The notes: a model not told the origin generated them from the letters alone. Positions 5,526 to 36,306 are shown, numbered from the stretch's first letter. The stretch: DNA of 61,360 bases from Actinomycetes bacterium (GCA_021814565.1 JAKAIC010000001.1:1-61360); one strand, 5' to 3'. Translations and numbers: made by a program.

Positions 5526-5685
5526 CCGACCAGGTGGGGCCACTTCGCGGCGTCCCCGCGGGGCCAAGTCAGATTGACATTTTCACTGGCGGGAGGATCC
5601 TCAAAATGGCCCGTTCAGAGGCGTCTTCGGTGTCCTGTTCGGTCTCAGTCCGGACTTCCCCCATCTCGAAGCTAGTTTTGCCCCC

Positions 5686-8270: not shown

Positions 8271-8516
8271 GATCGGCCCGCATCGCCCGACCCCGCAGTT
8301 GGACTTCCACCTGAGTGGGGCCGGATCCGTACCGGGTCGGGCCGTGCAGCATCATCGGTCTGGTGGTGTCACGGGACGTACGTCTGCTGACCTGGACGGC
8401 CGATCGGCCATCGGCAAGTGGCAGGTGCGGCCCGTCTGGCCACCTTCGCGCCTCCTAGCGCGCCGCGCGGAACGGCGGACGTTCCCGCGAGGTGCCCGTG
8501 AGGTTCGTGGGCCACA

Positions 8517-9550: not shown

Positions 9551-11566
9551 TTGTGGGCTACGGGGGTGCAAGTGACGAAGAGGGTTGACGAACAACTACT
9601 GATTGGCCTCGCCATCCTGCAGGTGAACTGGGATGCGAAGGGGAGGAGTCATCTCGACAACTTCGTACCATTTGCTGTTGAGGCGTTGCGCACAAGCGGA
9701 TCGAGTGAGTTCACCTACGCGGAGGTTCGACAGGCGATCCTTGACACGTCGGGATTGAATCTGCCGGTTCAGGTCGTCGGCGCAGTTCTCAAGCGCGCTG
9801 AACTCGCCCGCTTCGGGACTCGTGCGTCGCATGGAACGTTCCGTCTGAATTCGGAAAAGGCGAGTCGGGTCTCATTGGAGGCGCAACGACAGCGCCTGCT
9901 ACGTGAACAGCGCAATCTCGAGGAATCGCTCGCACAGCACGCTAGCAGCGCCTTCGGTGCCGCGTGGTCCTTGGAAGTCGCCAACGCCGCCTTGCTTGCA
10001 TATGTCGATGGCAATGCAGCAGCGCTCCTTGGAACCGCGCTGCGGGGTGACAATGCACCGCGCGGTGAGGTTGACTCGGAGGAACGCGTCATCGTCGCGA
10101 GCTGGATTGAAGGGATCTCACATTCCGATCCCGATCGATTCGAGTACCTGCTGAACATCGTGAAAGGCAGCATGCTTGCTACGGGTCTCCTGTTGCCCCA
10201 TAGCAGCGAGATGGATCGGCCATTCAAGGCAACGACGCTCATTCTCGATACTCCCGTGTTGCTCGGAGCTTTGGGTCACGAGGGCGAAGAGACGCGAGCC
10301 TCAATCGAAGAGATCCTCGCTCTCGCTCGTCGACAAGGGGCGAAGCTCGCCTGTCTCCAGGGAACTTTGGTAGAGGTCCGCTCCGTCCTAACAGCAGCGT
10401 CGATGTCAATCGGTCGCGCCCACTCTCCGTCTACCAAGCCGGTGGACTTGCACTTCGCGCGAACAGGACAGTCGAGAGCCCAAGTCCTAGCCAAGGCTGA
10501 ACGGCTTGATGCGGACCTGAACCGCATTCAGATTGAAGTGCGGGCGAATCCACACTTCGCTGAGTTCGACACCGTGGACGAAGCCGTTCTTGAGCAACTG
10601 CTAGAACGCGCAGTGCACCATGGCCCGGAGCGAAGAGAAGCGCTGTTGCACGACTTGAATGCACTTACGTCCGTTCATAGATTGCGCAGGAACCGAGACG
10701 GCGATCGGCTTGAGAACTGCGGTGCTGTCTTCATCAGTCCGAACACTGGTGTCGTTGCCATTGCTAACGCATTCGAGGGATTCAAGACGCACCGGTGGCC
10801 GATCGCGATGTCTCTGGACTCGCTTGCCACGATGCTCTGGGTCAAGACTCCACTAGCTGCCCCGGATCTGCCTAGGTATCGCCTATTGGCCAACTGCTAC
10901 AGCGCTCTCGAACCTGAACCGGAGCTGTGGGCCCAGTTCTTGCGAGAAATCGACCGGCTGCGATCTGACGACTCGATCACGGATGACGATGTGACTTTCC
11001 TCAGGTACTCGCAAGAGGTCCGACGCGAACTCGCCCAAGGCGCCGTTGCGAAGCGATCTGGCGCTTCGCATGACCTTGTTATCGATGTACTGGCACGAGT
11101 GCAAGGCAAGCTCAGTGAACCAGCCGAAGGTCAACGCGTTGCCGCCGAACAGAAGTTGAGGGAGGTAGAGGCCGTTCATGAGGCTCTAGCGGTGCGGGCC
11201 CAATCGACCGAAACGGATCTCGAGAAGATCACTAGAGAACTCGCGGAGGAGCGCCAGCGTAGGGAGCGTCGGGACAAGCACTCAGAGAGCGTGCTCACCG
11301 ATGTCGCTGGACAAGCAGAACGAGTGGGCAAGTGGGCGGGTTGGGGAATCACGGTCCTCATCGGTGCCAGTTACTTCTGGGCAACAAGGCATACCAGTTG
11401 GCTTGCCCATCTCATAACCTCACTAGCCGTGACTGTCGCGCTGCTTGTCGGGAACCTCCAGGCTCCGGGCAAGGCCGTCGAGCGGTTCATTGCGGACTGG
11501 TTCAAGCGGGTCCGCATCGCACTCCTCAAATTGCCTACCGAGGAAGCGCTGGACACCAGGTTGTAG
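9551..11566 (+). CDS. Large hypothetical protein: N-terminal wHTH-like region, central PIN-like acidic motifs, coiled coil, two C-terminal TM helices
   Basis: 671 aa. TLILDTPVLLGALG, LHDLNALT and VFISPNTG resemble PIN-like Asp motifs. Heptad-rich LREVEAVHEALAVRAQSTETDLEKITRELAEERQRRERRDK. Hydrophobic WAGWGITVLIGASYFW and LITSLAVTVALLVGNL. Confidence 0.5.
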   Translation: MWATGVQVTKRVDEQLLIGLAILQVNWDAKGRSHLDNFVPFAVEALRTSGSSEFTYAEVRQAILDTSGLNLPVQVVGAVLKRAELARFGTRASHGTFRLNSEKASRVSLEAQRQRLLREQRNLEESLAQHASSAFGAAWSLEVANAALLAYVDGNAAALLGTALRGDNAPRGEVDSEERVIVASWIEGISHSDPDRFEYLLNIVKGSMLATGLLLPHSSEMDRPFKATTLILDTPVLLGALGHEGEETRASIEEILALARRQGAKLACLQGTLVEVRSVLTAASMSIGRAHSPSTKPVDLHFARTGQSRAQVLAKAERLDADLNRIQIEVRANPHFAEFDTVDEAVLEQLLERAVHHGPERREALLHDLNALTSVHRLRRNRDGDRLENCGAVFISPNTGVVAIANAFEGFKTHRWPIAMSLDSLATMLWVKTPLAAPDLPRYRLLANCYSALEPEPELWAQFLREIDRLRSDDSITDDDVTFLRYSQEVRRELAQGAVAKRSGASHDLVIDVLARVQGKLSEPAEGQRVAAEQKLREVEAVHEALAVRAQSTETDLEKITRELAEERQRRERRDKHSESVLTDVAGQAERVGKWAGWGITVLIGASYFWATRHTSWLAHLITSLAVTVALLVGNLQAPGKAVERFIADWFKRVRIALLKLPTEEALDTRL

Positions 11567-11684
11567 GGCGTAGAGCCGATTGTCCACAGTGAGATTGAAG
11601 CGTGCCGTTCCGAGTCGCAGCCCGATGGCCGTCCCTAGGGCGGTGACACTGGAACAGGCACGCTGGTGATTGCGCGGGTGACAG

Positions 11685-13451
11685 GTGGCCGGACGCTGGT
11701 CCGGCATGACCACACATACACATACTGGGAATCAGGACCTGCCGGGGACCACGGAGGCCGCTTCGGTGGTCGCTGCTGCGGCTGCCTTGTTGACGAACTT
11801 GCATCAACAGCGCGCGAGTACGGCCCGCGGCAGGCTCATGGAGTTCCTCCGGGATACGACGTCCTCGGGCTGGGATGGGGAGACTCGCCCTGATCTTGTT
11901 GCCCTCCTGACGGAGGCCGCGATCGAGCGCCATGTGCGCGCGCGTGCTGCCGCCGGCGAGGGCAACCGGGGGCTGTCGGATCGGCGTACCGATCTGCGGA
12001 ACATCCGCAGGGCGCTCATCGCTGACCCGAATGACATCCGACGCAAGCCTGCGAAGAGTCACGGCACTCCGGCCGGTAGCGACATGCTGCTGGCGGGGCT
12101 GCTCGCCGGTGCGAATGGCGTCGAAGTACACGCACTAGTCACTGCGCTTCGCGAGCAGGGCCACGTCACCGCGCAGCACATGCGCACGCTGCTGTCGACT
12201 CGACTGCTGCGGCAGCTTCCTGTGAATGCGGTGGTGAGCCAGGTCGGCACTCCTTCGGCGGAGGGGTGCCGTCTCATGAGGGCAATGGCAACCGCCAACG
12301 CCGCGGCATCCGGGAGCGTGATGCGGTCCATGCCACGAACCTCAACCACGGCAGTAACGAAGTCGCGTCGCAAGAGCAACCGCGAGGTCATGCGCGAAGC
12401 AGCCGACAAGGCGAAGGCGGTGACGGTCGAGAAGACGTTGCACGACCTCGCCGCCACAACATGGCCGCAATTGCGTAGCATGCCTACGGCGACGCGCACC
12501 GCAATGATGAAATACCGGCCGCAGGGCGTTCCCGACACCGAATGGATCCTGCTGCGGCCTGCGTTCCTTCGGCTCATGTCGCTGCTGCAGCAGGAGTCCC
12601 CACGCGTTGCACGCAACACGGCCTCGCTGCTCGTGCGATACCTGCGGTGGCGGCTGTCGAACCGGACTCCCGCGGGTGCCCAACCGTTGGCAATGGCGGA
12701 GGTGGGTGTCCGGGAGGACGTCAACACCTGGTTGGCCGTCATGCGTTCTCGAGGGACGCCACCTGCGACCCTCGCGACGATGCGATCGGAGGTTCCCTAT
12801 GTCATCGATGCCCTCCACCCCGATTTGGCACCCGTGCGGCTGCCCTACACCCCGGCGCCGGCGCCCTACAGCGATCGCGAGGTGGCAACGTTCCTCGCGA
12901 TTGCGCGATATCAGCCGACCGAACGCAGTCAGCAGGAGACGACGGCGCTGATCGCGCTCTGTGCTGGTGCCGGCCTCACCCCTGGTGAGGTCACGTCCGT
13001 CACCCCCGCGGACCTTCAGCCGCTGGAAATGGGCGACGGCTTCCGCACCTACCTGGTTCGTGCTGGACGTGGGAGGCAGGAGCGTGTGGTTCCCCTGCGG
13101 TTGGCCTTCGTCGCTCCTCTGGAGGATGCGCTGCGCATTCACAAGGAGCGCAGGCAGGGCACGCGCCCTCTTGTACCGAAGCTGGCTGCGCCGGGTACCC
13201 ACGGCATCGTGGCCAGAGTCGAACTCAGCGATGAGGTGGGACTCGATCTTCAGGCCTACCGGTTGCGCAACACGTGGCTGGTGGCCCAGATGCAGGCATC
13301 GGTTCCGCTGGCCGATCTGCTCCGTGCCGCAGGTCTCGTGAGCGCGCGCCCCCTGACTGACCTGCTGCCACATTGCGCGCCAGCAGAGCCAGCACGCATC
13401 CAGCACCTGCTCGCCGCTGCGACGGTCGTGAAGGCCGGTGAGCACGCATGA
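11685..13451 (+). CDS. Module copy 2, gene A: integrase-fold protein that appears catalytically degenerate
   Basis: 588 aa. C-terminus parallels copies 1 and 3 (YSDREVATFLAIARYQPT, LCAGAGLTPGEV, YRLRNTWLVAQM, LLRAAGL). ATGA overlap with gene B. Start may be the Met at 11706 (MTTHTHT). Confidence 0.65.
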   Translation: MAGRWSGMTTHTHTGNQDLPGTTEAASVVAAAAALLTNLHQQRASTARGRLMEFLRDTTSSGWDGETRPDLVALLTEAAIERHVRARAAAGEGNRGLSDRRTDLRNIRRALIADPNDIRRKPAKSHGTPAGSDMLLAGLLAGANGVEVHALVTALREQGHVTAQHMRTLLSTRLLRQLPVNAVVSQVGTPSAEGCRLMRAMATANAAASGSVMRSMPRTSTTAVTKSRRKSNREVMREAADKAKAVTVEKTLHDLAATTWPQLRSMPTATRTAMMKYRPQGVPDTEWILLRPAFLRLMSLLQQESPRVARNTASLLVRYLRWRLSNRTPAGAQPLAMAEVGVREDVNTWLAVMRSRGTPPATLATMRSEVPYVIDALHPDLAPVRLPYTPAPAPYSDREVATFLAIARYQPTERSQQETTALIALCAGAGLTPGEVTSVTPADLQPLEMGDGFRTYLVRAGRGRQERVVPLRLAFVAPLEDALRIHKERRQGTRPLVPKLAAPGTHGIVARVELSDEVGLDLQAYRLRNTWLVAQMQASVPLADLLRAAGLVSARPLTDLLPHCAPAEPARIQHLLAAATVVKAGEHA

Positions 13452-15346
13452 TCCGTGATTGGGAAATCGAACGTGTGCGACTGCTCGTGGACCGTTCCGG
13501 CGTCGTTCCCCTGGTCGAGGCCGAAATGAGGCGTCGTGGCACTGGCCGTTTGAGCAGCGTGACCCTTCGAGACTGGTTCGTCTGTGAGGTGCTCACCGCC
13601 ATCCACGGCCAGAACCTTCACAGCAGTGAGGTGCGACGCATGTTCACTGACCTCAAGGAGTCAACCCTTGCAGCCCAGTTCCTGGTGGGGACGCGCATCC
13701 CGACTTCCGATGTCTTGGAAGGCGATCGGATCGTCTCCGTGAGCCCGTTCGAGACCCGGCTTCGCACCATGAACGAGCGGCTGTCGTTCCTGCAGAGTTC
13801 CGCCCCGGACATCACACCGGAGGAAGCCATGCGTCGAGAGGCGTTGCAGCAAGAGATCTCGTACCGCCTGTTGCGAGCCACGCGGCCGATCGACCTCCCA
13901 GACACTCGCGCGATGGCGGCGGACAGCACCGCCGTCGAGGCCTGGGGTCAGTTTCGGATCGGCGGCAACGATCCCGACGCCCGTCCGGGGTATCGCACGC
14001 CGAAACTCGGGGAGCGATCGGTCTTCCACGGCCATGCGTACTTCGTGTTCAGTAGCGTGGACCGCGACGGCGTACGTCCCGCGGTTGCCGCGCCACGACT
14101 GTTCGAGCAGCTTGTGGTGCGGCCTGCCAACGTCGAAGGTGGTGTCGGCATTCCGGTGCTGCCCTTCGCGCTGCGAGCAGCAGCCGAAGGCAGACTGCAG
14201 GAGTTGCTGCTCGATAGTGCCTGGTTCAACACATCATTCGAGGACTTCTTCGCGCCGCTGCAGGAGGCGGGCGTGCGCGTCATCATTCCCCCGAAGGCGT
14301 CCATGAAGCGCATCACCGTACGGGCCGATGGAACTCCGATGTTCTTCGCCGTCCCGCTCTGCCCTGGAACTCCGCAGGAGATGATCGACCTTGCCCGCAC
14401 TCTCAAGCAGCCAGCAGCAATGACACTCGAGCCTGGATTCACCGAGCAGGAACTCGACGAACTCGCACGAATGGCCGACCAAGAGCTCGATGCTGCAGAG
14501 CTCGTCCTGCCCGACGATGCGGATCAGGAGATCCATCTGGCGGAGGATGACGAAGAGTATGAGCAACCGGTCGGGTCTACGCCCGACGAGGATTCCGAAC
14601 GGTGGTGGCGCAAGGTTCGCAAACTCTCATGGCCGGAGCGTCGCGAGCACATCAAGCGGCGCAAACACAAGGTCTATGAAGACACTATCCAGTTCATCGA
14701 GGCCTCGGAGAAGGTCAAGGCCTACGCCTTGACCCGCAAGGAGTCCGCGACCGCCGAGAACGGTTGGCAGGAGCGGTGGGAATGCGGGGCGAAGTCCGGA
14801 CTTCTGCGATGCCCGCGAATCCCCGAAAGCATGCTTATCGATCCGGCTGACCGGCCGACGGTCCTGCCCTGTGACACAGGGTTCTGCGCCCAGACGCGGC
14901 CTGCTGACGGACGCGACAAGGACGTCCGAGATGGCACCATTCCCTTGGGCACCCCTGTCTACGTGACGTCTCTCCGATTGGACCGCAACGAGCGACCGAA
15001 GGTGCGCAGCAAGCATTTCCCGGGCACGCTCGCATGGATCAAGGACGTCACCCGACGATCCCGCGTGGAGGGCGACTTCGGCGTCCTCAAGTCACAGTCC
15101 GGTAGCGGCCTTACCAAGGGCTACTTCGCAGTCGGCGGGCAAGCCGCACACGTGATCCTGGGAACCATCGTCCTCGCCGCACGCAACATGAAGAACATCG
15201 AGGCATGGCTGGCGCGCGGTGGCGAGACCGCGGATCCTCTGTATGCACCCGAACCGGTGCTCCAGGGCTTCGGCGAACTCACAGTGGCCCAAGCCGCGCA
15301 AGTGCGGCGCAGCCACCTCGACCGCACTGACCAGCAGGCCGCATGA
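13448..15346 (+). CDS. Module copy 2, gene B: diverged IS4-like DDE transposase
   Basis: 632 aa. MAADSTAVEAWGQ (D), LLLDSAWF (D), RRSRVEGDFGVLK (R-x3-E-x6-K). Acidic insert. Confidence 0.65.
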   Translation: MIRDWEIERVRLLVDRSGVVPLVEAEMRRRGTGRLSSVTLRDWFVCEVLTAIHGQNLHSSEVRRMFTDLKESTLAAQFLVGTRIPTSDVLEGDRIVSVSPFETRLRTMNERLSFLQSSAPDITPEEAMRREALQQEISYRLLRATRPIDLPDTRAMAADSTAVEAWGQFRIGGNDPDARPGYRTPKLGERSVFHGHAYFVFSSVDRDGVRPAVAAPRLFEQLVVRPANVEGGVGIPVLPFALRAAAEGRLQELLLDSAWFNTSFEDFFAPLQEAGVRVIIPPKASMKRITVRADGTPMFFAVPLCPGTPQEMIDLARTLKQPAAMTLEPGFTEQELDELARMADQELDAAELVLPDDADQEIHLAEDDEEYEQPVGSTPDEDSERWWRKVRKLSWPERREHIKRRKHKVYEDTIQFIEASEKVKAYALTRKESATAENGWQERWECGAKSGLLRCPRIPESMLIDPADRPTVLPCDTGFCAQTRPADGRDKDVRDGTIPLGTPVYVTSLRLDRNERPKVRSKHFPGTLAWIKDVTRRSRVEGDFGVLKSQSGSGLTKGYFAVGGQAAHVILGTIVLAARNMKNIEAWLARGGETADPLYAPEPVLQGFGELTVAQAAQVRRSHLDRTDQQAA

Positions 15347-15365
15347 CAGTTGACCTGCAATGCGC

Positions 15366-15393
15366 TGAGGGCCGCCCCGATGGGGCGGCCTCA
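15366..15393 (+). terminator. GC-rich hairpin downstream of B2
   Basis: GGCCGCCCC / GGGGCGGCC 9-bp stem with a 3-nt loop, 20 nt after the stop. No clear U tract. Confidence 0.45.
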
Positions 15394-15926
15394 GCCACAT
15401 TCTGACCGTGCAGGTTCACACGTTCATTTTGAGGATCCTCAGCTCAGAATGGACTTCCATTCTGAGGATCCCCCTGGCAAGTTGTTGACCAAACTCCGGT
15501 TCCCTCACGATTCAGGCCCATTTCTGGGCCTCACGAAGAGGCTTGCACACGAAAACACGATTTTTTGCACACAGGCGCACGAATTCATCCGCTGCGACTT
15601 CCCGGTCCCGCCCCGCAAGCCGATGGCGCTGGCGCGCTCGTGGGATCAGCATTCCCAGCAATCCTCGAACGGAGCCCTCTGACATACGCACTCGCAGGAC
15701 CCGTCTGGATCTGAAAATGTGACGTTCCCATCAGTATCCGCGCCAGCTTCGGCCCAAGTGACGTCAAGGATTGCCCGATGCTCCGGCCCCCATCGACGGA
15801 CCGACGCGTTGGCCGCACCGTACGGCCACTTCGGATTGCACACAGCCTGGTTGCTTCACAGCAATTCGCGCGCACAGTTCGGTATCGGACTCAATGCTGT
15901 GCGGCTACGCTGCGGAGGTGCTCGCC

Positions 15927-16691
15927 ATGACTCGGTCTGGAACTTTCCGCTGGGAATCGGAACTGGTCAAATCGCTTCTCCCGGCGGTCGCGAAAATGAG
16001 TCCAGGGCCACGGGACCTAAGTGTGGTTACAGAAGTGCCATGTCCGTCAGGCGGCATTCCCGACATTGTCGGAGTGCTGCTCGACGCGGCCGCCATCGAA
16101 CGTCGAGAGGCATCTGGTCTGGGCGCCGTCACGAATCCGCATGAAGCGGTGATTCTTTCGCGACTGTCAGAAGGCGAAGCCACTTTGACCGAGTTGGCGA
16201 ATGTCGTCTTCCTATCTCGGGAGCACCTGCGTCGCAGCATTCTTCCTCGATTGATCAGTGCGGGCTGGATAGCGCCGCTTCAGGGCAGAGGCGAATCCGC
16301 CTCAACGATGCTGTTGGTCCAATACGAAGACGTCGCGCAGTGGGTAGTGACCGTGGAGGCGAAACTCACAGACTGGCGTGGAGGCATGAGCCAAGCCCTA
16401 AGGCACGCACCCAGTGCGGATGCTGCATATCTCGCACTCGATGCACGGTTCTCGCGTCGAGTGACCCTGCAAGCTTCGGCTGCGAGCGAACGCGGAGTCG
16501 GGATACTGACAGTCGATGCCTCCACCGGTGCCGTTGAAGAGCGCTCAACACCAGTCCGTTGGCAGACGCAGAACGTCCTTCGCCGCATCCTCGCGGAGCG
16601 TGTTTGGACGCAGCTGCGCTCCGACCATGTACCAGGTCATAACGCGCTGGTGTTCGGGCGTGACTTGGGAGCGCTCGCTCTAGCCGGCTAG
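15927..16691 (+). CDS. PD-(D/E)xK-like nuclease-fold protein with an inserted winged-helix segment
   Basis: GGIPDIVGV ... VTVEAKL (D ... ExK pattern), with wHTH-like LTELANVVFLSREHLRRSILPRLISAGWI in between. GGAGG lies 8 nt upstream of ATG 15927. The stop shares a CTAG palindrome with the convergent gene. Confidence 0.5.
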   Translation: MTRSGTFRWESELVKSLLPAVAKMSPGPRDLSVVTEVPCPSGGIPDIVGVLLDAAAIERREASGLGAVTNPHEAVILSRLSEGEATLTELANVVFLSREHLRRSILPRLISAGWIAPLQGRGESASTMLLVQYEDVAQWVVTVEAKLTDWRGGMSQALRHAPSADAAYLALDARFSRRVTLQASAASERGVGILTVDASTGAVEERSTPVRWQTQNVLRRILAERVWTQLRSDHVPGHNALVFGRDLGALALAG

Positions 16692-18079
16692 CGCAATAGA
16701 GCCAGCCACCTATCAAGGTGCTTTGGCAGGTTGTCACCAGCAAGCGGTGTGGGACCGGACGCAATCTTCTGCACCATGGTTCGCGCATCGTTGACCATGC
16801 GTTGCGCGGCGAGGCGCGGCCTGCGGCTCGCCAGCACGCTCGATAGTGCCGCGGTGGCTATGAGGTAATGCTGGCCAGCTACCTCTTTGTTCCAGCCTGC
16901 CGATGTCGGAGCGCTCAAAGGCAGTCGTCTGCAGAAATCGCAACTGCACAACGCATAGGAAGGCTCCCCCATCATTGTGAGATGTGCAGCATGTTCCACC
17001 GTATGGAGAACGGATGATTCGAAGTATCGGACACGTGGTGGGCGCCAATTCTGCCGAGTCGATCCGAATCGGGGTTGATCCGCGTACGCCTGTTCGCTCC
17101 ACCCGATTCCAGTTGAGAAGCCGGTGGCTCCAATAGCGCTCATCACCCATCCCGTAAGACCCGAGTTCGGGAGAATAAGGTTCTTGCCTTCCAGCGCAGC
17201 GGTCGAACAAAGCTCCTTGTACCCGTCGAGCACCTTGGGGTCGACAAGTTGCCCGAACCTTGGTGCAGTCAACGGCCAGCGAAAGCGCAAGTACCACAGT
17301 GACTCACTGGATTCGACGAGTTCGTGTAGCAGGACGTTGCGAAGAGTCGGGTTGGTGAGCCATACGTGATCGAACGTAAGATTGACAAACATTGGCTCGT
17401 CGGGCGCTTGGCTGCGACTGGCTGATACCCATCTCATTGCATGCTGCATCGCCCTTTGCGGAGCTGCATTGTCCACCCAGCCCGTAGCGGACACGAGGGC
17501 GGTAGCTCCCGCGTTACGTTGGACTCTTAGCACTTCCGTCACCCAGGCCGGATCCGTAGGCGAGTCCTGCGCCGGGGCATTGACGAACCAAGGCGAGCGC
17601 CTCCCGGCGCGAGGTCCAAGCGTCTTCGCATCTGGACACTGCGACCGCTCCGCCCTGAAGAGTTCAGGATCCGCCAACAGAAGCCTGTTCGTTGTGAACT
17701 GGCGAAGGAACTGTGTTCGCGCATCCAATCCGGCATTCAGCAATGGAAGTACCGCCCCGATGCCGACTTGACCTCTCGTCGCACGATCGGCCGCAGGAAG
17801 AGTGTCCGCGAAGTGTTGAGAAAGGCGGGCACCTCGCACGAACAAGACGACAGGTACATCACCATCGAGCTGTTTGCTCAATGACGGCCCACCAGTCCGT
17901 ACCGATTCGTCCGGCGGGGTCGTCACCTCGCCGGTTTCCAAGTTGACAATGCGGCCGTCTTCGAGGATCTCAGTGCGACTTTGGTCTGAGCCAGGACCGG
18001 TTTGTGGCTCGATGTGCTGCTGCGTGGACGCGAGATCCCCGTCCATGGGAACGAGGCGATCAGTCGGGTTGCGCGCCAT
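16688..18079 (-). CDS. Hypothetical protein with a TGT/DpdA-like zinc motif (CxCxxC-x20-H)
   Basis: 463 aa. C-terminal ALCSCDFCRRLPLSAPTSAGWNKEVAGQH. No other motif recognised. Alternative start Met at 18046. Confidence 0.5.
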   Translation of the reverse strand: MARNPTDRLVPMDGDLASTQQHIEPQTGPGSDQSRTEILEDGRIVNLETGEVTTPPDESVRTGGPSLSKQLDGDVPVVLFVRGARLSQHFADTLPAADRATRGQVGIGAVLPLLNAGLDARTQFLRQFTTNRLLLADPELFRAERSQCPDAKTLGPRAGRRSPWFVNAPAQDSPTDPAWVTEVLRVQRNAGATALVSATGWVDNAAPQRAMQHAMRWVSASRSQAPDEPMFVNLTFDHVWLTNPTLRNVLLHELVESSESLWYLRFRWPLTAPRFGQLVDPKVLDGYKELCSTAALEGKNLILPNSGLTGWVMSAIGATGFSTGIGWSEQAYADQPRFGSTRQNWRPPRVRYFESSVLHTVEHAAHLTMMGEPSYALCSCDFCRRLPLSAPTSAGWNKEVAGQHYLIATAALSSVLASRRPRLAAQRMVNDARTMVQKIASGPTPLAGDNLPKHLDRWLALLR

Positions 18080-19022
18080 CTCTCTCTTCCATTTCTCGAA
18101 GTGCCCGGCGGGCGGAACCCCGTTCGTGTGGTTCGAAGCTCAGGAGACGCCATACCAAGACTTGCAGGTGTGCTGGCACCTGAACAGGCATGGCGCGGGG
18201 CCCAGATTCGATTCTCTTGAGGAGCTCCTCTGGGAGCACCTGCGCTTCGGAGGCATCGAGGAAGGGGTGTTCGTGCGCGAGCACGAGGTGCGCCACCGCA
18301 CCCGCGGCCCAGACGTCCGCCTGTTTACGACTGCTCTCTCCACGAAGTTGCTCCGGTGCCATGAACGGCACCGTGCCCTTTAGCGTGGGATAAACGGTCA
18401 GCGTCTCAACGTCCAGTTGCTTCGCTAGACCAAGGTCTAGAAGAACCGGCTGGGACCACGCATCGCGACGAAGAGCGATGTTTGCTGGCTTGATGTCCCG
18501 ATGAACTGTCTCTGTCGCGTGCAGAGCTGCAACGGCGCCGAGCAGGGATCGGACAAAGTGCTCGGCGTCGATCAGGGATGGCCAGTCTCCCGAGTCGAGG
18601 TGCCTAGCGACGTCGCGGCCATCCACGTACTCAAACTCGAGTGCCGGCCTGTCCCCTCTGGACAATGTGACGATTGTGCAATCAAGCAAGCGAACGACAC
18701 GTGGATCGGAGACTCTTCGCAGACCGGCGATCTCTCGATCGAGAATCTGTTGCGGATATGCGGAGTGCAGGATGAACTTCACTGCGCTCACGGAATCATG
18801 TCCGCGTTCGACTCGCCAAGTCTCTCCATAGCTACCTCGGCCAAGAAAGGCCACGGAGGCAGCACCGGTCGCGGCAATGACCTCGGCGGCATCTAGTTCG
18901 GCAATACTTCCGTTCCACGCAGGTGCCGCCGTGTTCCCGGTTGTCAAGTGGTCCTCGTTCCTGCTGACCTCTCGAAATACCAACCTCCGCGCTCTAGATG
19001 GGTCGGACCAGCCGAGAACCAA
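18060..19022 (-). CDS. Soluble Hanks-type Ser/Thr protein kinase
   Basis: GRGSYGETW glycine loop, AVKF lysine, HRDIKPANI catalytic loop, DLGLAK, MAPE. No TM or sensor domain. Confidence 0.85.
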   Translation of the reverse strand: MVLGWSDPSRARRLVFREVSRNEDHLTTGNTAAPAWNGSIAELDAAEVIAATGAASVAFLGRGSYGETWRVERGHDSVSAVKFILHSAYPQQILDREIAGLRRVSDPRVVRLLDCTIVTLSRGDRPALEFEYVDGRDVARHLDSGDWPSLIDAEHFVRSLLGAVAALHATETVHRDIKPANIALRRDAWSQPVLLDLGLAKQLDVETLTVYPTLKGTVPFMAPEQLRGESSRKQADVWAAGAVAHLVLAHEHPFLDASEAQVLPEELLKRIESGPRAMPVQVPAHLQVLVWRLLSFEPHERGSARRALREMEERDGAQPD

Positions 19023-19049
19023 ACTTCTGAGGCGGGTTGATCGACCAAT

Positions 19050-19733
19050 TCACTCATCGCTTCGCAGCTCGTTCGGTTGCGCGATGTCTTCATCGGGAGG
19101 CGCTTGGCCTGGCGCCGGTGGGAGTTGCAGGCCACGAGCGATTCGCCACTGGTAGTAGCGCTCCCTGACGAACTCTTCCGCTTCAGTCCAATTGACGGCA
19201 CGAGGTGCCGTCACCTGCTCCGAGACATTCGACGGGTTTGTGAAGCAAAGTACGTCTACACCGTGTGCCTGTAGCCGCGCAATGTTGCCGGCTGAATCTT
19301 CGACGAAGACGTCGGCTCGCACGGCTGCCTTGTCTTCGATCAGGCAGAGGTCTCGGTACGGAATTCCGTGCAGTTCCAGCCAGCGAATGGTCTGGCTCGC
19401 AGCGGGTTCGTGAAAGTACGGGATAAACAGGCGATGTGTGGCAATCCTGATATGAACGCCCTCTGCGCTCAAGCGGCGTAGCGCTTGCGGCGCACCAGCG
19501 ACCGGCTGCATCTTCGCAAAGAGATCGCGCTGCGTGACCGCAAATCGGTGCAAGCGTCGGTACTGAACCATGTCCAGATCCCATTCAGGGAACCCGTATC
19601 GAGGCGATGGGTGCAACGTCTCTATCGGCTGGCCGGACCACTCGGCGAACACTTCGCGCATGCTTTGCAAGAAGTCTGCGACACAACCGTCGAGATCCAG
19701 TCCAAGAACGAACTTGTCAAACTTGTCGGCCAC
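19050..19733 (-). CDS. 5'(3')-deoxyribonucleotidase-like HAD protein (NT5C family-like)
   Basis: Motif I LDLDGCVADF, IATHR, VFVEDSAGN. GTG start at 19733 preceded by GGAAGGGGG. The tracked ORF extends to 19865. Confidence 0.6.
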   Translation of the reverse strand: MADKFDKFVLGLDLDGCVADFLQSMREVFAEWSGQPIETLHPSPRYGFPEWDLDMVQYRRLHRFAVTQRDLFAKMQPVAGAPQALRRLSAEGVHIRIATHRLFIPYFHEPAASQTIRWLELHGIPYRDLCLIEDKAAVRADVFVEDSAGNIARLQAHGVDVLCFTNPSNVSEQVTAPRAVNWTEAEEFVRERYYQWRIARGLQLPPAPGQAPPDEDIAQPNELRSDE

Positions 19734-20006: not shown

Positions 20007-20173
20007 GCCTGCTGCTGCTTCGTCCTGGCGGACAGTTCGTCGGCCATCTTGAGCCTGCCCCCAGCCCGCGGGCAGGCTCAAGATCTTCTTCCGAGAATCT
20101 TCAACGAGCGAGTGCAGCGTCTCGGGCGGCGGTAAGTCATAGCAGGCACCCCCGATCCCGACCACAAGCTTGC

Positions 20174-20728
20174 CTACGAGTGGTTCAACGCCTGTTTAGC
20201 TACCCCTGTAGTGCTGTAGCGGAACCTCGCCATTTCAACGGTTACGTCGTAGTCGTTGGCGATCTGTTCGACGCTGGCGCGACGTCGAGCGGCGCTGAGG
20301 AGGAGAGGGCGCGGGAGGAGGAGAGTGCCGCCGAATGCGGTTGCTTCCTCTTCTTCGTCCGGTCTACATGTCCGGAACGGCATGCCATCGAGTTCCTTGA
20401 TCTCAGACAGGTCATGCTTGAGCATCACATGCGAAAGTTCGTGCGCTAGGTCGCTGTTCTGGCGCCCCACGCTTCGCAGCGGGCTGACCACGATGATCTT
20501 GCGATTCTGGATCTCAAACGTTGCGGCGGAAAAGGAGAACGACTGAAGGCGTTCGAGTTCCTCGAGTTCAGACATGGTCACGAGGTCGGCGGCGTCGACG
20601 ATAGCGAGGCCAAGGTGGCGTGCTAACTCGCGTGGGTCGAGACGGTCATGCGGGGCGAGGCCCAGTTCTCTTCGCACTCGCGCCGCTTCACGTTCAGCTT
20701 CCGCCTTGAACCCGCGCCGTAGCGTCAC
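20174..20728 (-). CDS. ImmA/IrrE-family zinc metallopeptidase (CapP-like)
   Basis: 184 aa. HExxH in AHELSHVMLKH. Start overlaps the stop of the upstream XRE gene. Confidence 0.8.
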   Translation of the reverse strand: MTLRRGFKAEAEREAARVRRELGLAPHDRLDPRELARHLGLAIVDAADLVTMSELEELERLQSFSFSAATFEIQNRKIIVVSPLRSVGRQNSDLAHELSHVMLKHDLSEIKELDGMPFRTCRPDEEEEATAFGGTLLLPRPLLLSAARRRASVEQIANDYDVTVEMARFRYSTTGVAKQALNHS

Positions 20729-21225
20729 AATTCCCCAGCGGCGACGCGAGCGGCCAATTTCTCGTGCATCTCGACGAGCAGACTATTGAGGCGATGTGGG
20801 ACGCCCGGGCGGAGGACCGATGCCGCTCGAAGGTGGCAGGCCACCACCTGCCTTTGCGTCGGGGCCTTCGCCAGTCCGTCGTACATGCTTCGGAGGAAAT
20901 CGGCGATCTTCCTTGCCGCCTCAGGTTCGAGCCGCGGGTCTGATGCGAGATGGGCGATTGCCTCGTCGATGGGCGTCACCTCGCGCACAGTGACTGGAGT
21001 GAAGAACTCGCCCGGGGACACCCCAAGCCACGCGCAGAGCAGCGTGAACGACGTGAGGTCTGGTTGAGCGCCGGCTTCAATCCGGGTGAACGTGCTGAAA
21101 CTGACGCCCGCATCTTCGGCCGCCTTACGGAGCGACAACTTCCCTCGACGCTCCCGAAGGAGGGCACCGAGTTGGGCAATATCGAGCCGCTCCACACGGT
21201 CAGGGGCGCTGGAGGCGGAAGTCAC
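20725..21225 (-). CDS. XRE-family helix-turn-helix regulator (CapH-like)
   Basis: LGALLRERRGKLSLRKAAEDAGVSFSTFTRIEAG is a canonical Cro/C1 HTH. Co-operonic with ImmA and divergent from the ubiquitin-like operon. Confidence 0.8.
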   Translation of the reverse strand: MTSASSAPDRVERLDIAQLGALLRERRGKLSLRKAAEDAGVSFSTFTRIEAGAQPDLTSFTLLCAWLGVSPGEFFTPVTVREVTPIDEAIAHLASDPRLEPEAARKIADFLRSMYDGLAKAPTQRQVVACHLRAASVLRPGVPHRLNSLLVEMHEKLAARVAAGEL

Positions 21226-21300
21226 GCTGCCTCCGCACGACTGCTGGACCCGAAATCGACTGGTTCCATGCGCCGGAGTGTAGCGCCGAATTGGCGCTCT

Positions 21301-21324
21301 GGTGACACGACACGACGTGTCACC
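21301..21324. promoter_or_regulatory. Candidate operator: 9-bp inverted repeat GGTGACACG-N6-CGTGTCACC
   Basis: Perfect 9-bp arms in the 175-bp divergent intergenic region between the XRE gene and the Mub gene. Confidence 0.45.
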
Positions 21325-21345
21325 AACTCAGCAATGACGCTTTGC

Positions 21346-21354
21346 TGATACAAT
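21346..21354 (+). promoter_or_regulatory. Candidate extended -10 element TGATACAAT
   Basis: TGn-TACAAT about 47 nt upstream of the Mub ATG. AGGAG lies 6 nt before ATG 21401. Confidence 0.3.
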
Positions 21355-21400
21355 TTCTGTGGTGTCCGAACCGCGGAGCCGAGCCTTTTAGGAGCCACAA

Positions 21401-21643
21401 ATGCATGATGCGAACAATGCTTCACCAATCAACTTCACGATCGACGGTCAGAGTTTCACGACCGACGATGCCACGCAATCACCCGCCTCGCTCTTGGCGT
21501 TCGTGGGGTTCGACACCGCCTCCTACGACCTCATGCAGATGTTGCCCGACGGCAAGCCGCGCAAGTTCCAAGAAGGCCAGACAGTGCACATCGAGAATGG
21601 CGAGGAATTCTTGACGGTGCGCAAGGAAGCGTCGGTGGCCTGA
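21401..21643 (+). CDS. Multiubiquitin (Mub)-type beta-grasp domain protein
   Basis: 80 aa. INFTIDGQSFTTDD...QTVHIENGEEFLTV pattern and its position upstream of Prok-E2 and E1-JAB genes. Stop overlaps the next start. Confidence 0.6.
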   Translation: MHDANNASPINFTIDGQSFTTDDATQSPASLLAFVGFDTASYDLMQMLPDGKPRKFQEGQTVHIENGEEFLTVRKEASVA

Positions 21644-22020
21644 TGAGCGAGCGTCCGCCGCGTGACGGAGTCGATGGCTTCATCGCCGACCTCGCAGACT
21701 TCAACATCGCCGCGTTCATCGATGGACCTGTCGTGCGCTACTCGGTGACACCGATCGATGGGTCTATGAGCGGATCCGCCGTGGAGACCGCCGTGGGAAT
21801 CGTCGAACTCGCTCCGTGGCCCGCTGCACCTCCGCACTGGATCCATCTTCCAGCGCACTTCACGTTTGCGCACACGAACACCCAACCCCAGGGCTCGCTG
21901 CTCGGCTGGCTCTGCCACTCGCGCAACATCACATCGTGGACGCCAAGCGCTCACCCTGGCCGGCAATGGCTTGCGCATGTCCGCACTGTTCTCGGTCAGA
22001 TCACTGGAACGGCGGCCTGA
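21643..22020 (+). CDS. Prokaryotic E2-like protein (Prok-E2_E-like)
   Basis: 125 aa. PPHWIHLP motif and candidate Cys in GWLCHSR. Gene order Mub-E2-JAB/E1. Confidence 0.55.
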   Translation: MSERPPRDGVDGFIADLADFNIAAFIDGPVVRYSVTPIDGSMSGSAVETAVGIVELAPWPAAPPHWIHLPAHFTFAHTNTQPQGSLLGWLCHSRNITSWTPSAHPGRQWLAHVRTVLGQITGTAA

Positions 22021-22021
22021 T

Positions 22022-23494
22022 ATGCGTCACAGCGTTGCCATGTCAGTGCAAGTCGACGCGGCCCTCCGGGAGCACCTTGATCGACCAGATGGTCAAGAGG
22101 ACATCTGTCTTGCGACCTACTCGGTATCCACGGGCCGAACGCGTATTTCCCGCCTCATAACCCAGGTCGAACTCCCCGCGACAGGCGAACGTCGCGTCCA
22201 CGGAAACGCGACGATCACCGGGGACTACGTGCTTCGGGTCGCGGCCGTGGCCGCCGCCCGAGAAGAAGGCCTCGTCATTCTCCATTCACACCCCGGTGGT
22301 CACGGCTGGCAGGAACTCAGCGGCCCCGACCACGACGCCGAGCGTTCCTACTCGCACCTCGTGCAGCGCATCACTGGACTCCCGCTAGTGGGAATGACCT
22401 ACTCGGGTGGCGACCAGGCATGGTCGGCCCGCGAATGGGTCATCGGATCTCCCATCTGGCACGAGAGTGTCCGTGTCGTCGGGAACACACTGCGCATCAC
22501 CTGGAACGACACGCAACGGCGGCCACCGGCAACGACGGTCGAGCAGATCCGCACCGTCTCTGCTTGGGGCGAACAACTGCAGCAGGACATTGCCCGGATG
22601 CGCGTCCTTGTTGTCGGCGTCGGCAGCGTCGGACTCGATGTGGCCATTCGCCTCGCGGCCACCGGCATCCAACACATCGGCGTCATGGACTACGACACTG
22701 TCGAGCCGCTGAACCGTGACCGCATGATCGGAGCAACGCGCAAGGATGCGCGACGCAAGACTCCAAAGGTCGAGGTGGCGGACCGGCTTATGACGACCGC
22801 TGCAACCGCCCGATGCCCTGAGATCGCGCTCCATTACCTCAGCATCTGCTCGCCGGAGGGCTTGGCCACCGCGCTCGACTACGACGTCATCTTCTCCTGC
22901 GTCGACCGTCCGTGGCCTCGGGCAGTCATGAACACCCTTGGCTACTCAGACCTGATCCCTGTCATTGATGGCGGTATCAACATCGACACATTCCCCAACG
23001 GATGCATGCAAGGGGCAAGTTGGCGTGTACAGGCCGTAGCACCCGGTGTCCCTTGTCTGTCGTGCTCCGGGCAGATAAACATGCCGCAGGTTGCCCTAGA
23101 CCGGGCTGGGCTACTCGATGACGCGAACTACATCTCACAAGCCGGCCTCCATTCACCCGCAAGTCAGAATGTCGCGCTGCTCTCCGCAAGTGTGAGCGCT
23201 GCACAGCTCGCGCAATTCGTCACGCTCACTGTCTCGCCAGGCGGTCGCGGTGTGTACTCGCCGCTGCGGTACATCCTTGCGGCGCACCACCAAGAACACC
23301 TCGATGGCATCAGCCAGCCCGGCTGTCGCTTCGAACATCGACCTGGCGAAGGCGACAAGCGGAGCGAATTCGTTAGCAACACCGGTCCTTGGATCGACGC
23401 AATGGCAGCACGCACACGCAAGCGGCGCAACTTCGCGTTGCCGTGCGCACTCGCCCGGTTCGTCGCCAGTGCACGCATCACGGACCGCAAGTAA
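22022..23494 (+). CDS. JAB/JAMM deubiquitinase-like domain fused to ThiF/E1-like adenylation domain
   Basis: EEGLVILHSHPGGHGWQELSGPD (E...HxH...SxxD) followed by Rossmann VLVVGVGSVGLDVA...VMDYDTVEPLNRDR and PCLSCSG. ATG at 22022 lies 2 nt after the E2 stop. Confidence 0.75.
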   Translation: MRHSVAMSVQVDAALREHLDRPDGQEDICLATYSVSTGRTRISRLITQVELPATGERRVHGNATITGDYVLRVAAVAAAREEGLVILHSHPGGHGWQELSGPDHDAERSYSHLVQRITGLPLVGMTYSGGDQAWSAREWVIGSPIWHESVRVVGNTLRITWNDTQRRPPATTVEQIRTVSAWGEQLQQDIARMRVLVVGVGSVGLDVAIRLAATGIQHIGVMDYDTVEPLNRDRMIGATRKDARRKTPKVEVADRLMTTAATARCPEIALHYLSICSPEGLATALDYDVIFSCVDRPWPRAVMNTLGYSDLIPVIDGGINIDTFPNGCMQGASWRVQAVAPGVPCLSCSGQINMPQVALDRAGLLDDANYISQAGLHSPASQNVALLSASVSAAQLAQFVTLTVSPGGRGVYSPLRYILAAHHQEHLDGISQPGCRFEHRPGEGDKRSEFVSNTGPWIDAMAARTRKRRNFALPCALARFVASARITDRK

Positions 23495-24102: not shown

Positions 24103-25338
24103 TCAGTTCTGGCGCAGGACGGTTCCGCTGGGCCCCGCGGTCTCACAGTCGGGACTGGCGCAGTCGACGCCATGGCTGCCGGACAACGCGATCAATATGA
24201 CGCAGACAAGCAGGATGAGACCGCCCACGCTTGCCAAGCTGGCAACTTCGTTGGTGTGCGCAACCATGACCGCGGCGAGCACTGGGCCGACCGGTCCGAT
24301 TGCATACGATCCAAGCGCGTCGATCGCGAAAACGCGGGAAAGCTCTTGCGACGGTATCGATCGTTGAAGCACGGTCACCCACAGGACTCCGAAGACCTCA
24401 ATGCCCGCACCTGTGAGGAGTGCAGCCACTAAGACTTGCGAAATGCTTCCGACCGCGAGCGCAAGTGGCTCGAGGGCGATGAGGCTCGCGTATTGGAGAG
24501 CGCGAAGAAGCGGCTTGGTGGGATCGAGCCTAAGCGCAAGCGCCGCACCGAGCACTGAACCAACCCCGGTTGCAGCCGATACGCTGCCCCACACTTCCGC
24601 CCCGCCAAGGTGCGTCACGGCTTGCATGGGTCCCAGTACGTTGATGCACGCGAGGAATGCAGCGTTGATCAGGGCAAACCCCGCCACCGTTTGCAGCAAC
24701 CATGGTCTAGAGACAACGGCTTTCACGCCTTGCTTTGCTGCTTGTCGCCAAGACTCCTGCGCTTCCGCCACTTGCGGAATCTCGCGCAATCCCATCCGGC
24801 TCACTGCACCAAAAAGGCAACTAACTCCGACAAACGTCAGGATCGCGGAGCCGTAGCGCCCGGCCAACCAAGCTCCCAGGAACGCCCCGCCGATCTGCGC
24901 TACATTGGCGATAATGCGACGGATACTGTTCGCTGACTGAATCTTTGCGGCGTCCACGACTTGCGTGAGAATGCCTTGGCTTGCGGGCAGGTAGAAGCCG
25001 AGCCCAACCCCTCGCAGCGCGGTGAACGCCGCCACCGGAAGTAGCTGCAAAGGTGCCCTCTCGAAAGTGACACTCAAACTGAAGGCTGCCGCTGCCTGCA
25101 TCAAGTCTGCCAGCAGCATCACGTCACGCCTGGACCTACGATCGGCGATCAACCCGCCAAAGACCAGCGCCAGGACCTGCGCCGCCAGGAGCGCTACCGA
25201 CACGACCGCCAGGTCCGCACCGCTGCCACGGGCCGAAAGGATGAGCACCGGCGTTGCTGTCGTCGCGGCGGCGCCAGCCAGCAACGTCGCAGCGTCACTC
25301 GCGCAGAGCCATACGAAGCGTCGACCCAACCGGTTCAT
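24103..25338 (-). CDS. MFS transporter
   Basis: 411 aa with ~12 hydrophobic segments. GGLIADRRSRRD loop motif typical of MFS. Confidence 0.8.
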   Translation of the reverse strand: MNRLGRRFVWLCASDAATLLAGAAATTATPVLILSARGSGADLAVVSVALLAAQVLALVFGGLIADRRSRRDVMLLADLMQAAAAFSLSVTFERAPLQLLPVAAFTALRGVGLGFYLPASQGILTQVVDAAKIQSANSIRRIIANVAQIGGAFLGAWLAGRYGSAILTFVGVSCLFGAVSRMGLREIPQVAEAQESWRQAAKQGVKAVVSRPWLLQTVAGFALINAAFLACINVLGPMQAVTHLGGAEVWGSVSAATGVGSVLGAALALRLDPTKPLLRALQYASLIALEPLALAVGSISQVLVAALLTGAGIEVFGVLWVTVLQRSIPSQELSRVFAIDALGSYAIGPVGPVLAAVMVAHTNEVASLASVGGLILLVCVILIALSGSHGVDCASPDCETAGPSGTVLRQN

Positions 25339-25937
25339 GAAGGTCGGTTGGATGCTCGTTTGCCGCTGCTTGCGGCACTCTTCGCTGCGGACGGTGTCTT
25401 CGAGCTACCGGGATCTGGAGAAGTTTGTACCTCGGCGCTGCTGAACATCATAACCGTCGAACTCACGTGAACAACTCCCGAGGCAGACTTGTCGGTGGCG
25501 GCCTTGTGCAAGCGCTCCAACGCCTTGGCTACCGCTCGAGCGCATTGAATCCATGCGTCCTCGCTCACCCATAGCTCCGCATCGCTGAAGAGGTCCCAAG
25601 AGTCTGGCTTTGCCGCCAACAGGCGGCGACGGACCTCGGCGGAAGCTGCTGCTGCGCTCGAAGGCAGATCGACGGCAGCACCATCAGCGAAGTCGCCCGC
25701 GGTTCGATACAGCCGCTCCTGGCCACCGCGCACGCTGCGCACGTCCACCAACTCGATCAAACCAGCCGCAGCCAATTGACGAACGTGGAAACTGACCGCG
25801 GCCTGAGACTTTCCGAGTTCGCGTCCCAGTTCAGTTGCCGATCTCGGGGCGCCCGTGAGCATGGAAAGGATCCGCAAGCGCACGGGATGCGAGAGCGCAC
25901 GGAGGTGCTGGCGTTCAGCATCATCCACCAAAGACAT
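25335..25937 (-). CDS. ArsR-family winged-helix regulator with C-terminal extension
   Basis: LRALSHPVRLRILSML...ATELGRELGKSQAAVSFHVRQLAAAGLI. 4-nt overlap with the MFS gene. Confidence 0.8.
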   Translation of the reverse strand: MSLVDDAERQHLRALSHPVRLRILSMLTGAPRSATELGRELGKSQAAVSFHVRQLAAAGLIELVDVRSVRGGQERLYRTAGDFADGAAVDLPSSAAAASAEVRRRLLAAKPDSWDLFSDAELWVSEDAWIQCARAVAKALERLHKAATDKSASGVVHVSSTVMMFSSAEVQTSPDPGSSKTPSAAKSAASSGKRASNRPS

Positions 25938-26216
25938 GTTTTGGAGCCTCCCACTGGAGACGCGGACACGTCAAGGAATGCATGTTGCACGCTCTTCGCG
26001 CTGAATCTCTGCGGAGCACCAATCGGTGCACCAGAAGTCTGCACGGCGGGCCCGAGCCCGCCCTACCGAGTGCGTCGCTGCAGCCGCTAGAAGTGCGTGC
26101 GACAGACCCGGGCGAGGCGACCACAAAAGGAGTGCTTGACGGTAGCGTCGGCATGATGCAGCATCCGCACAAGAGTTGCTTTGCAGTTGAGTGCTTGGCG
26201 CAACGGGGGGATTGCA

Positions 26217-36216: not shown

Positions 36217-36306
36217 TGGCGGTGACGGTGGGATTTGAACCCACGGTGAGCTTTCACCCACACACGCTTTCGAGGCGTGCTCCTTAGGCCACTCGGACAC
36301 ATCACC
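36217..36306 (-). tRNA. tRNA-Ser (anticodon CGA), CCA encoded
   Basis: Reverse complement folds as acceptor GGTGATG/CGTCACC, anticodon stem CACGC/GCGTG with loop CTCGAAA, a long variable arm, and T-arm GTGGG-TTCAAAT-CCCAC. Confidence 0.9.

Follow-up and report, generated by a model that had tools for sequence, protein, structure and literature searches.

A three-gene locus in an actinomycete genome

The DNA analysed here, called the window in what follows, is a stretch of 61,360 nucleotides from an Actinomycetes bacterium (GCA_021814565.1, JAKAIC010000001.1:1-61360). Contigs of metagenome-assembled genomes such as GCA_027393445.1 correspond to it. Between positions 15927 and 19733 it encodes a protein with a predicted PD-(D/E)xK nuclease fold, a protein resembling tRNA-guanine transglycosylases (TGT), a Ser/Thr kinase and a deoxynucleotidase of the NT5C family. 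An original prediction, made from the sequence of the window, had grouped these four genes into one undescribed, defence-like cluster on an accessory island. The open reading frame (ORF) listing and a direct reading of the window recovered all four ORFs and every motif and sequence feature that had been listed. The domain calls, the idea of an undescribed island cluster and the association of kinase, TGT-like protein and nuclease all withstood the comparative analysis, whereas the four-gene unit did not. The functional unit is a three-gene module found on integrative or accessory islands of Actinomycetota. The features of the locus are the following:

15927..16691, plus strand: convergent PD-(D/E)xK nuclease-fold protein, 254 aa, core component and putative DNA-cleaving effector
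16688..18079, minus strand: TGT-fold protein, 463 aa, core component, founding a new family without a Pfam model
16931..16948, minus strand: codons for C378-S-C380-D-F-C383, with H404 the putative zinc ligands of a TGT-like subdomain
18060..18947, minus strand: minimal Hanks-type Ser/Thr kinase, 295 aa, core component
16673..16706, no strand assigned: junction of the convergent genes, with shared stops, palindrome and inverted arms
19050..19733, minus strand: NT5C-family 5'(3')-deoxyribonucleotidase, 227 aa, a neighbour and not a conserved component

The genes are closely arranged. The tetranucleotide CTAG at 16688..16691 provides, as had been noticed before, both stop codons of the convergent genes at 15927..16691 (plus strand) and 16688..18079 (minus strand). 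It falls within a perfect 12-bp palindrome (CTAGCCGGCTAG, 16680..16691), and on either side of it lie inverted 10-nt arms, imperfect at 90% complementarity. Judging from this arrangement, arms and palindrome could form a bidirectional hairpin across both gene ends. The kinase gene stops at 18060; its longest ORF begins at 19022, and public gene calls begin at the TTG at 18947, giving the 295-aa protein. It overlaps the 463-aa gene by 20 nt if the latter starts at the ATG at 18079, and lies 13 nt from it if Met12 is the start, so both start choices agree with the earlier statement that these ORFs overlap or are at most 13 nt apart. The description of the minus-strand genes as tightly packed suits the kinase and the 463-aa gene. 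It suits NT5C less well: the choice of kinase start sets its distance from the kinase at between 27 and 102 nt, and NT5C is thus packed less closely than the other two.

Conservation and fusion of the trio

The genomic context of the module was taken from contigs of ENA, JGI, NCBI and Logan encoding members of the TGT-like family, to which we added one-genome-per-species GTDB contigs (21 loci), JGI metagenome contigs (20 loci) and two loci reached by starting from the nuclease instead of the TGT-like gene. Trio members were located in these loci by tblastn and hmmsearch. About 36 of these loci are distinct and complete, and 35 of them have the arrangement kinase -> TGT-like <- nuclease; both loci found via the nuclease also hold the full trio. 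The single exception, L007, keeps the kinase and the TGT-like gene and misses the convergent gene. In every complete locus a kinase of 267-316 aa, 41-56% identical to that of the window, lies directly upstream of the TGT-like gene (380-520 aa across the trio loci), and a 4-nt start/stop overlap between the two is the usual arrangement. On the other side, a 236-281-aa homologue of the 254-aa protein converges on the TGT-like gene, with 3' ends ranging from a 38-nt overlap to a 53-nt gap in the 23 loci that were measured. Larger called overlaps occur in distant loci (56 nt in L035 and 149 nt in L036).

The association goes as far as gene fusion. Two representatives of the TGT-like family, P0250 (677 aa) and P0254 (669 aa), are single polypeptides with the Pkinase domain at the N terminus and the TGT-like domain at the C terminus, and the locus of the former (L035) keeps a homologue of the convergent nuclease (hmmsearch E = 6e-32). 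The kinase, the TGT-like protein and the convergent nuclease are also all kept in L036, which represents a distant subfamily with a TGT-like protein of 382 aa. The fusions and the widespread translational coupling speak for a joint, physical action of the kinase with the TGT-fold protein.

The trio is rare and patchy, with 21 loci from 185,579 species genomes, and its carriers are nearly all Actinomycetota, Microbacteriaceae above all. Cultured carriers include Leifsonia sp. Root4, Klenkia soli DSM 45843, Agromyces mediolanus and Microbacterium spp. The TGT-like family itself is rare: a word-indexed search retrieved 31 clusters among 5.8 billion, and an exhaustive profile search 264 representatives at 50% identity. 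None of the viral contigs in IMG/VR encodes the TGT-like family or carries the trio. We found no description of the trio in a non-exhaustive search of the literature on kinases, TGT/DpdA, 7-deazaguanine, actinobacterial defence and MADS. The earlier view of kinase, TGT-like protein and nuclease as an undescribed defence-like cluster on an accessory island is borne out as a likeness.

Some loci depart from the standard form. In L007 (9749..12402) an IS110 transposase lies about 1.6 kb downstream of the TGT-like gene, and in L063 (3403..6068, 7770..8792) a short TGT-like gene (340 aa) is separated by 190 nt from the kinase, with two copies of IS110 nearby. Both look like decaying copies of the trio. 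L064 has a second, larger Pkinase gene (481 aa, 5116..6561, minus strand) that is divergent from the nuclease gene, in an otherwise standard trio.

The neighbouring deoxynucleotidase

The fourth gene of the window was well identified from the start. NT5C matches Pfam PF06941 (E = 1.7e-38) over 174 of 180 profile positions and has the HAD motif I (DLDGC, residues 13-17), as expected of an NT5C-like deoxynucleotidase. It could have formed a larger system with the trio, in which the kinase signalling, the TGT-like protein and the nuclease would be linked to a depletion of dNMP or dNTP by NT5C. The layout of the window lends itself to this: NT5C is on the same strand as the kinase, 27-102 nt upstream of it, and no hairpin lies between them. 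On its other side a perfect 15-bp stem with a 9-nt loop (20046..20084) stands between the stop of capP and the start of NT5C. This strong hairpin is, from its sequence and position, likely a terminator parting the capP/capH pair from the NT5C, kinase and TGT-like genes. Together, the absence of one hairpin and the presence of the other make the co-transcription of NT5C and the kinase plausible.

Still, co-occurrence decides against such a system. A tblastn search with the NT5C of the window found no homologue in any other trio locus, the genes directly upstream of the kinase change from locus to locus, and NT5C has no PADLOC match. The four-gene unit and the nucleotide-depletion arm of the original prediction are hence not upheld: NT5C was found in the window locus only, and the depletion arm lacks comparative support. 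By this comparison NT5C is best regarded as a local passenger, and the four-gene reading, as a general system, appears effectively refuted; we give it almost no chance.

The convergent nuclease-fold protein and the kinase

The convergent protein carries P45-D46 and E144-A-K146. Six residues (E36, P45, D46, E144, K146, Q156) do not vary among the homologues in either of two alignments, of 13 and of 31 sequences, and the nuclease motif residues are retained in the distant loci L035 and L036. An AlphaFold (AF2) model with a predicted local distance difference test (pLDDT) score of 89.9 has the order alpha-beta-beta-[winged helix-turn-helix (wHTH), residues ~54-130]-beta(ExK)-alpha(Q)-beta, which fits a PD-(D/E)xK core. 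The protein thus presents the catalytic residues of PD-(D/E)xK enzymes on a predicted alpha-beta-beta-beta-alpha-beta core. The winged helix, about 75 residues with helices and a beta-wing, interrupts the core between its strands 2 and 3. It matches the winged helices of ArsR, MarR and HlyU in Foldseek and PDB profile searches, and a sub-threshold match to the SgrR_N HTH covers it (E = 1.3e-4, 22.7 bits for a cut-off of 24 bits). We found no match to Pfam nuclease families, Mrr_cat included, and no other family match, including in PADLOC and PHROGs. The invariant motifs, the topology of the model and the wHTH matches agree with the earlier description of a PD-(D/E)xK-like protein with an inserted winged helix.

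The kinase matches Pfam Pkinase (PF00069) with E = 9e-34. All its catalytic motifs are in place (GRGSYG 36, AVK 55, HRD 149, DLG 171, APE 197 and DVWAAG 211, in the numbering of the 295-aa protein) and it has no additional domain. It is thus a Hanks-type Ser/Thr kinase and, as already proposed, one with intact motifs and without a sensor. Its best PADLOC match is PD-T4-6 (E = 4e-42), and it also matches mad6 (E = 1e-39).

The TGT-fold protein

The 463-aa protein has no match in Pfam, NCBIfam, PADLOC, PHROGs or PDB sequences. It has no significant sequence or profile match to the TGT/DpdA superfamily (PF01702), a PDB profile search did not detect TGT, and ten distant relatives of the protein gave no TGT match either. 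The resemblance emerges from the structure. An AF2 model built from an alignment of 28 sequences (pLDDT 87.5, pTM 0.84) has an N-terminal hairpin, eight beta/alpha units, a beta-hairpin, a Cys-rich segment and C-terminal helices, in this order. The top Foldseek match in PDB is mouse QTRT1 (6h62_B, E = 6e-5, 413 columns, TMt 0.57), followed by a bacterial TGT (4gg9, E = 1.8e-4, about 400 aligned columns, TMt 0.48). Generic TIM barrels rank below the TGTs, with E values of at least 1e-3 and shorter alignments. The model thus has the (beta/alpha)8 barrel and the C-terminal zinc subdomain that define the fold of the TGT superfamily.

The putative zinc ligands point the same way. The protein of the window has C378, C380, C383 and H404, in the CxCxxC...H pattern of TGTs. 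An hhalign comparison with a seven-sequence TGT alignment placed these residues on C302, C304, C307 and H333 of E. coli Tgt, at a low probability (5.5%). Comparisons with E. coli Tgt (a query sequence 97.8% identical to a database record) or with the TGT alignment gave two short, low-probability local alignments, over the strand-4 region and the zinc motif. We use these TGT alignments as consistency checks only. The zinc ligands and the fold both match TGT, as the prediction of a protein with a TGT-like zinc motif had it.

The active site can be compared through a tentative map, obtained by matching the order of strands and not by residue-level superposition. On this map the invariant D137 (ADPE, end of strand 3) may occupy the position of the general acid/base Asp in the TDSGG motif of TGT, and the base-binding FDEC of TGT is replaced by SATGW. 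Conserved polar residues (D137, N233/T235, R265/W268, N305/S306, S322/T323) group at the C-terminal ends of the strands. This clustering in the model suggests that the protein has a real ligand or active site, which would not be the canonical site of guanine/preQ exchange. The earlier idea of base exchange could still apply but is weakened, since what resembles TGT is only the fold and the zinc ligands.

Such a fold raises the possibility that the trio is a restriction-modification (R-M)-like system, which is the main rival to an immune module of a new kind. The TGT-fold enzyme, assisted by the kinase, would modify the host DNA by base exchange, as DpdA does, and the nuclease would restrict unmodified DNA. 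The best structural match of the protein is to the TGT/DpdA fold, and its best viral match is an uncharacterised protein of a Gordonia phage. Nuclease and modification genes that converge with abutting ends are a common R-M layout, and the ends of the nuclease and TGT-like genes fit it. Furthermore, the sole incomplete locus (L007) has lost the nuclease and kept the other two genes, an order of loss that the logic of R-M tolerates. The kinase could also fill a known need, since DpdA requires an ATP-using partner in Dpd systems (PMC12839542). The motifs of the kinase speak against that role: APE and DxWxxG, which serve in binding protein substrates, are complete, and this does not suggest an ATPase helper. 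Neither DpdB, DpdC nor preQ0-synthesis genes were found in the annotated loci or among the 25 commonest of 92 neighbour families, and neither the nucleophile nor the base-recognition motifs of TGT can be recognised. Hence, we consider an R-M-like function unlikely, if more deserving of attention than the other alternatives.

Genomic context

The module lies in a region of the window with a G+C content of 58-63%, compared with 64-68% in the flanks. An IS3-type rve transposase and a DDE transposase (30902..31942, 34014..35972) stand beside two tRNA-Ser genes (36217..36306, 36959..37046). This zone is plausibly the right-hand edge of a lower-G+C accessory region that starts at about 9.5 kb. The lower G+C and the transposases of insertion sequences (IS) near tRNA-Ser genes fit an accessory island.

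Across loci, the flanks of the trio change and there is no conserved chromosomal neighbourhood and so no housekeeping synteny. The annotated loci include genes of mobility (tyrosine integrases, a TrwC relaxase, IS110 and rve transposases) together with a Type ISP R-M enzyme, GmrSD, a SNIPE nuclease, Ea47/DUF4238, PIN/Phd and a Bil-type ubiquitin-like system. In 19 genome loci with 107 neighbour ORFs, the families counted most often are Resolvase (5), Lipase_GDSL_2 (GDSL-like lipase, 4) and Phage_integrase (3). PADLOC matches near the trio are to single dGTPase, Old, MTase_II, RecD-like and PDC-S68 genes.

This context could also be that of a module of addiction, stabilisation or competition between elements, in which a toxic nuclease or kinase would be checked by its partners to the benefit of the island. 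Next to the trio one most often finds recombinases, integrases, relaxases and IS elements, the family is rare and patchy (the 21 loci in 185,579 species genomes), and the overlapping convergent transcription would be a plausible antisense control of a toxic gene. However, three enzymes with conserved active sites exceed the needs of typical toxin-antitoxin pairs, and nothing in the trio resembles a small labile antitoxin. An identical mobile-island context surrounds many bona fide defence systems and therefore does not discriminate between addiction and defence. We find the addiction hypothesis improbable.

One might alternatively propose a function unrelated to conflicts, such as kinase-regulated DNA repair or base processing, or transcriptional regulation via the wHTH protein. 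TGT-fold enzymes and PD-(D/E)xK or wHTH proteins are also found in repair and regulation, and ordinary metabolic genes flank the trio in some loci. Yet the distribution is very sparse even within genera and synteny is not conserved. In addition, recombinases and defence genes accompany the trio, and in the window it lies in a region of lower G+C. Such a function seems to us slightly less probable still than addiction.

Within the window, the module has further neighbours of interest. About 0.4 kb beyond NT5C, on the minus strand (20174..21225), are genes for an IrrE/M78 peptidase (PADLOC capP, E = 1.7e-13) and an HTH protein with a weak capH match. Divergent from them, at 21401..23494 on the plus strand, are ORFs for proteins of 80 aa, 125 aa and 490 aa, the last of which is ThiF/E1-like (PADLOC E1-E2, E about 1e-9). 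These capP/capH-like regulators and the E1 operon, which stand ~0.4 to 2 kb beyond NT5C, look from their matches like a ubiquitin-like or E1 defence operon regulated by CapH/CapP (20174..23494). The claim that the cluster lies next to another defence-type operon is thus partly borne out, on this side. On the other, three large consecutive ORFs on the plus strand (9551..15346; 671, 588 and 632 aa) have no match in Pfam, NCBIfam, PADLOC or PHROGs and only non-significant matches to PDB sequences (E of at least 0.28). When these three ORFs and the capH, capP and ThiF genes were searched by tblastn in all loci, none was associated with the trio, besides weak matches to the C-terminal third of the middle ORF (11685..13451) in L047, L022 and L016.

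Homologues of the C-terminal ~200 aa of this middle ORF lie next to the trio, or not far from it, in L047 (7255..8226) and L022 (2143..2985). The domain resembles a degenerate tyrosine recombinase (Pfam E = 0.17; motifs GAGLxxxE, RMRxTW and TRY), which is a faint hint from sequence that the ORF may have a mobile-element function rather than one in defence. Within the third upstream ORF (13448..15346), ARAGORN calls a tRNA-Gly(GCC) on the minus strand (13908..13996); this tRNA is probably spurious, unless it is the ORF that was miscalled. Just past this ORF is a G+C-rich hairpin (15364..15395), and a nested perfect palindrome (GGATCCTCAG / CTCAGAATGGA .. TCCATTCTGAG / CTGAGGATCC, 15433..15471) lies in a doubtful ORF of 100-110 aa upstream of the nuclease gene. 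These elements could be a terminator or an operator. A scan of the window for promoter and terminator consensus sequences gave nothing informative. Further along the same accessory region (24103..28165) are an ArsR-family regulator and an MFS transporter on the minus strand, followed by a radical-SAM protein and a class I methyltransferase on the plus strand. Among the other loci, the one with the fused gene (L035) also adjoins a Bil-type system (BilD_N, Rad60-SLD).

A candidate immune module

What could be the function of the trio? Its strict composition, the fusion, the conserved active sites, the mobility, the rarity and the variable flanks fit a conflict system better than a housekeeping one. 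We propose, at a probability of about one half, that the trio is an anti-phage or anti-mobile-element immune module: nucleic acid would be read by a complex of the kinase with the TGT-fold protein, and the effector role would fall to the wHTH nuclease. The TGT-fold protein would be the reading subunit, engaging a flipped-out base in invading DNA, or possibly tRNA, and it might excise the base that it engages. In complex with it, the kinase would convert recognition into the phosphorylation of proteins of the host, of the phage or of the system itself. The wHTH nuclease would cleave DNA, and its dosage could be held down by the convergent, overlapping transcription from the kinase operon.

Several results weigh against this proposal. 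Neither of the two new families (the TGT-like and the convergent nuclease) matches any PADLOC model, and the resemblance of the kinase to PD-T4-6 and MAD6 is mostly generic. Foldseek and the PDB profile search retrieve the wHTH of the convergent protein only, and no nuclease, so the nuclease assignment rests on motif conservation and topology. The likeness to TGT is at the level of the fold (TM 0.47-0.57), with non-significant profile comparisons. All three Cys of the zinc site are retained in just 15 of the 28 aligned members of the family, while H404 is invariant. On the strand-order map, the nucleophile motif GxDMFD of TGT seems to be replaced by GFSTG, with no Asp in strand 8, and the guanine/preQ base-binding residues are not recognisable. 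Finally, the enrichment in defence genes around the trio is modest, a handful of single matches among the 107 neighbour ORFs.

A more specific variant would make the TGT-fold protein an active base-processing immune enzyme. Excision or swap of bases in invading DNA or in the tRNA anticodon would be gated by the kinase, and the nuclease would finish the job. For example, such an enzyme could strip the 7-deazaguanine-type modifications that protect phages. We think this variant improbable, but if true it would reveal a new immune chemistry, with base excision or exchange under the control of a kinase and directed against DNA modification instead of serving it.

If the trio is immune, this would have several implications. 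It would be a compact three-gene module that includes two families currently modelled by no database, and it would join a TGT/DpdA-type fold directly, at times in one polypeptide, with the phosphorylation of proteins. It would also give a handle on the activation of defence kinases that lack a sensor. Should the TGT-fold protein act on modified phage DNA or tRNA, it would provide a new effector or sensor chemistry and possibly a base-specific tool for nucleic acids. Actinomycetota are under-sampled for defence systems, and the strict synteny of the trio offers a clean definition for DefenseFinder or PADLOC. The novelty lies in the two protein families without a database model and in the unprecedented coupling of a kinase with a TGT fold; island-borne defence based on kinases or on nucleases is already known.

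Comparison with known systems

The TGT-fold protein shares with TGT and DpdA the (beta/alpha)8 barrel, the N-terminal hairpin, the beta-hairpin after strand 8, the CxCxxC...H zinc subdomain and the helical tail. It differs from them in having no significant sequence or profile similarity, no recognisable nucleophile or guanine/preQ motifs, and a Hanks kinase as its constant, sometimes fused, partner. To our knowledge, the TGT/DpdA-type fold has so far been found in defence only as a DNA-modifying enzyme. We rejected membership in the Dpd systems because none of their partner genes was found: DpdB, DpdC, preQ0-synthesis and dpdD-K genes are all absent from the annotated loci and from the 25 commonest of the 92 neighbour families.

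The kinase is closest to PD-T4-6 of E. coli and to Stk2 of Staphylococcus, which are also Hanks kinases with full motifs, the former being its best PADLOC match. The fused kinase::TGT-like forms recall the layout of single-gene kinase defences, a kinase followed by a C-terminal sensor domain. In contrast to these stand-alone kinases, that of the trio never occurs alone: it is linked or fused throughout, always with a TGT-fold protein and a convergent nuclease, and the similarity is of the generic kinase domain. The kinase domain also matches mad6/MAD6 of MADS (PADLOC E = 1e-39), but the NCBIfam score is 104 bits for a cut-off of 460 bits and the trio has no methyltransferase. MAD7 and MAD8 are mandatory for calling MADS (bioRxiv 10.1101/2023.03.30.534895). 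Both are missing and the partners of the kinase have no PADLOC match; membership in MADS was thus rejected.

A closer combination of modules is found in PglW of type 2 BREX and in a subset of DndF, which have a NERD restriction-endonuclease fold, a Ser/Thr/Tyr kinase and wHTH modules (PMC12839542). Like the trio, they bring together a restriction-endonuclease fold, an active kinase and a wHTH in a defence context. In them, however, the modules are in one giant protein that belongs to multi-gene BREX or Dnd systems with PglZ, a methyltransferase or other components, and no BREX or Dnd genes were found near the trio. In the trio the modules are distributed over small proteins, the wHTH is embedded in the core of the nuclease, and there is a TGT-fold protein besides. 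Taken as a single protein, the convergent nuclease may be likened to the Mrr-type Type IV restriction enzymes: both have a wHTH and a PD-(D/E)xK core in one small protein. The difference is in the position of the winged helix, which is N-terminal in Mrr and inserted between core strands 2 and 3 in the protein of the trio.

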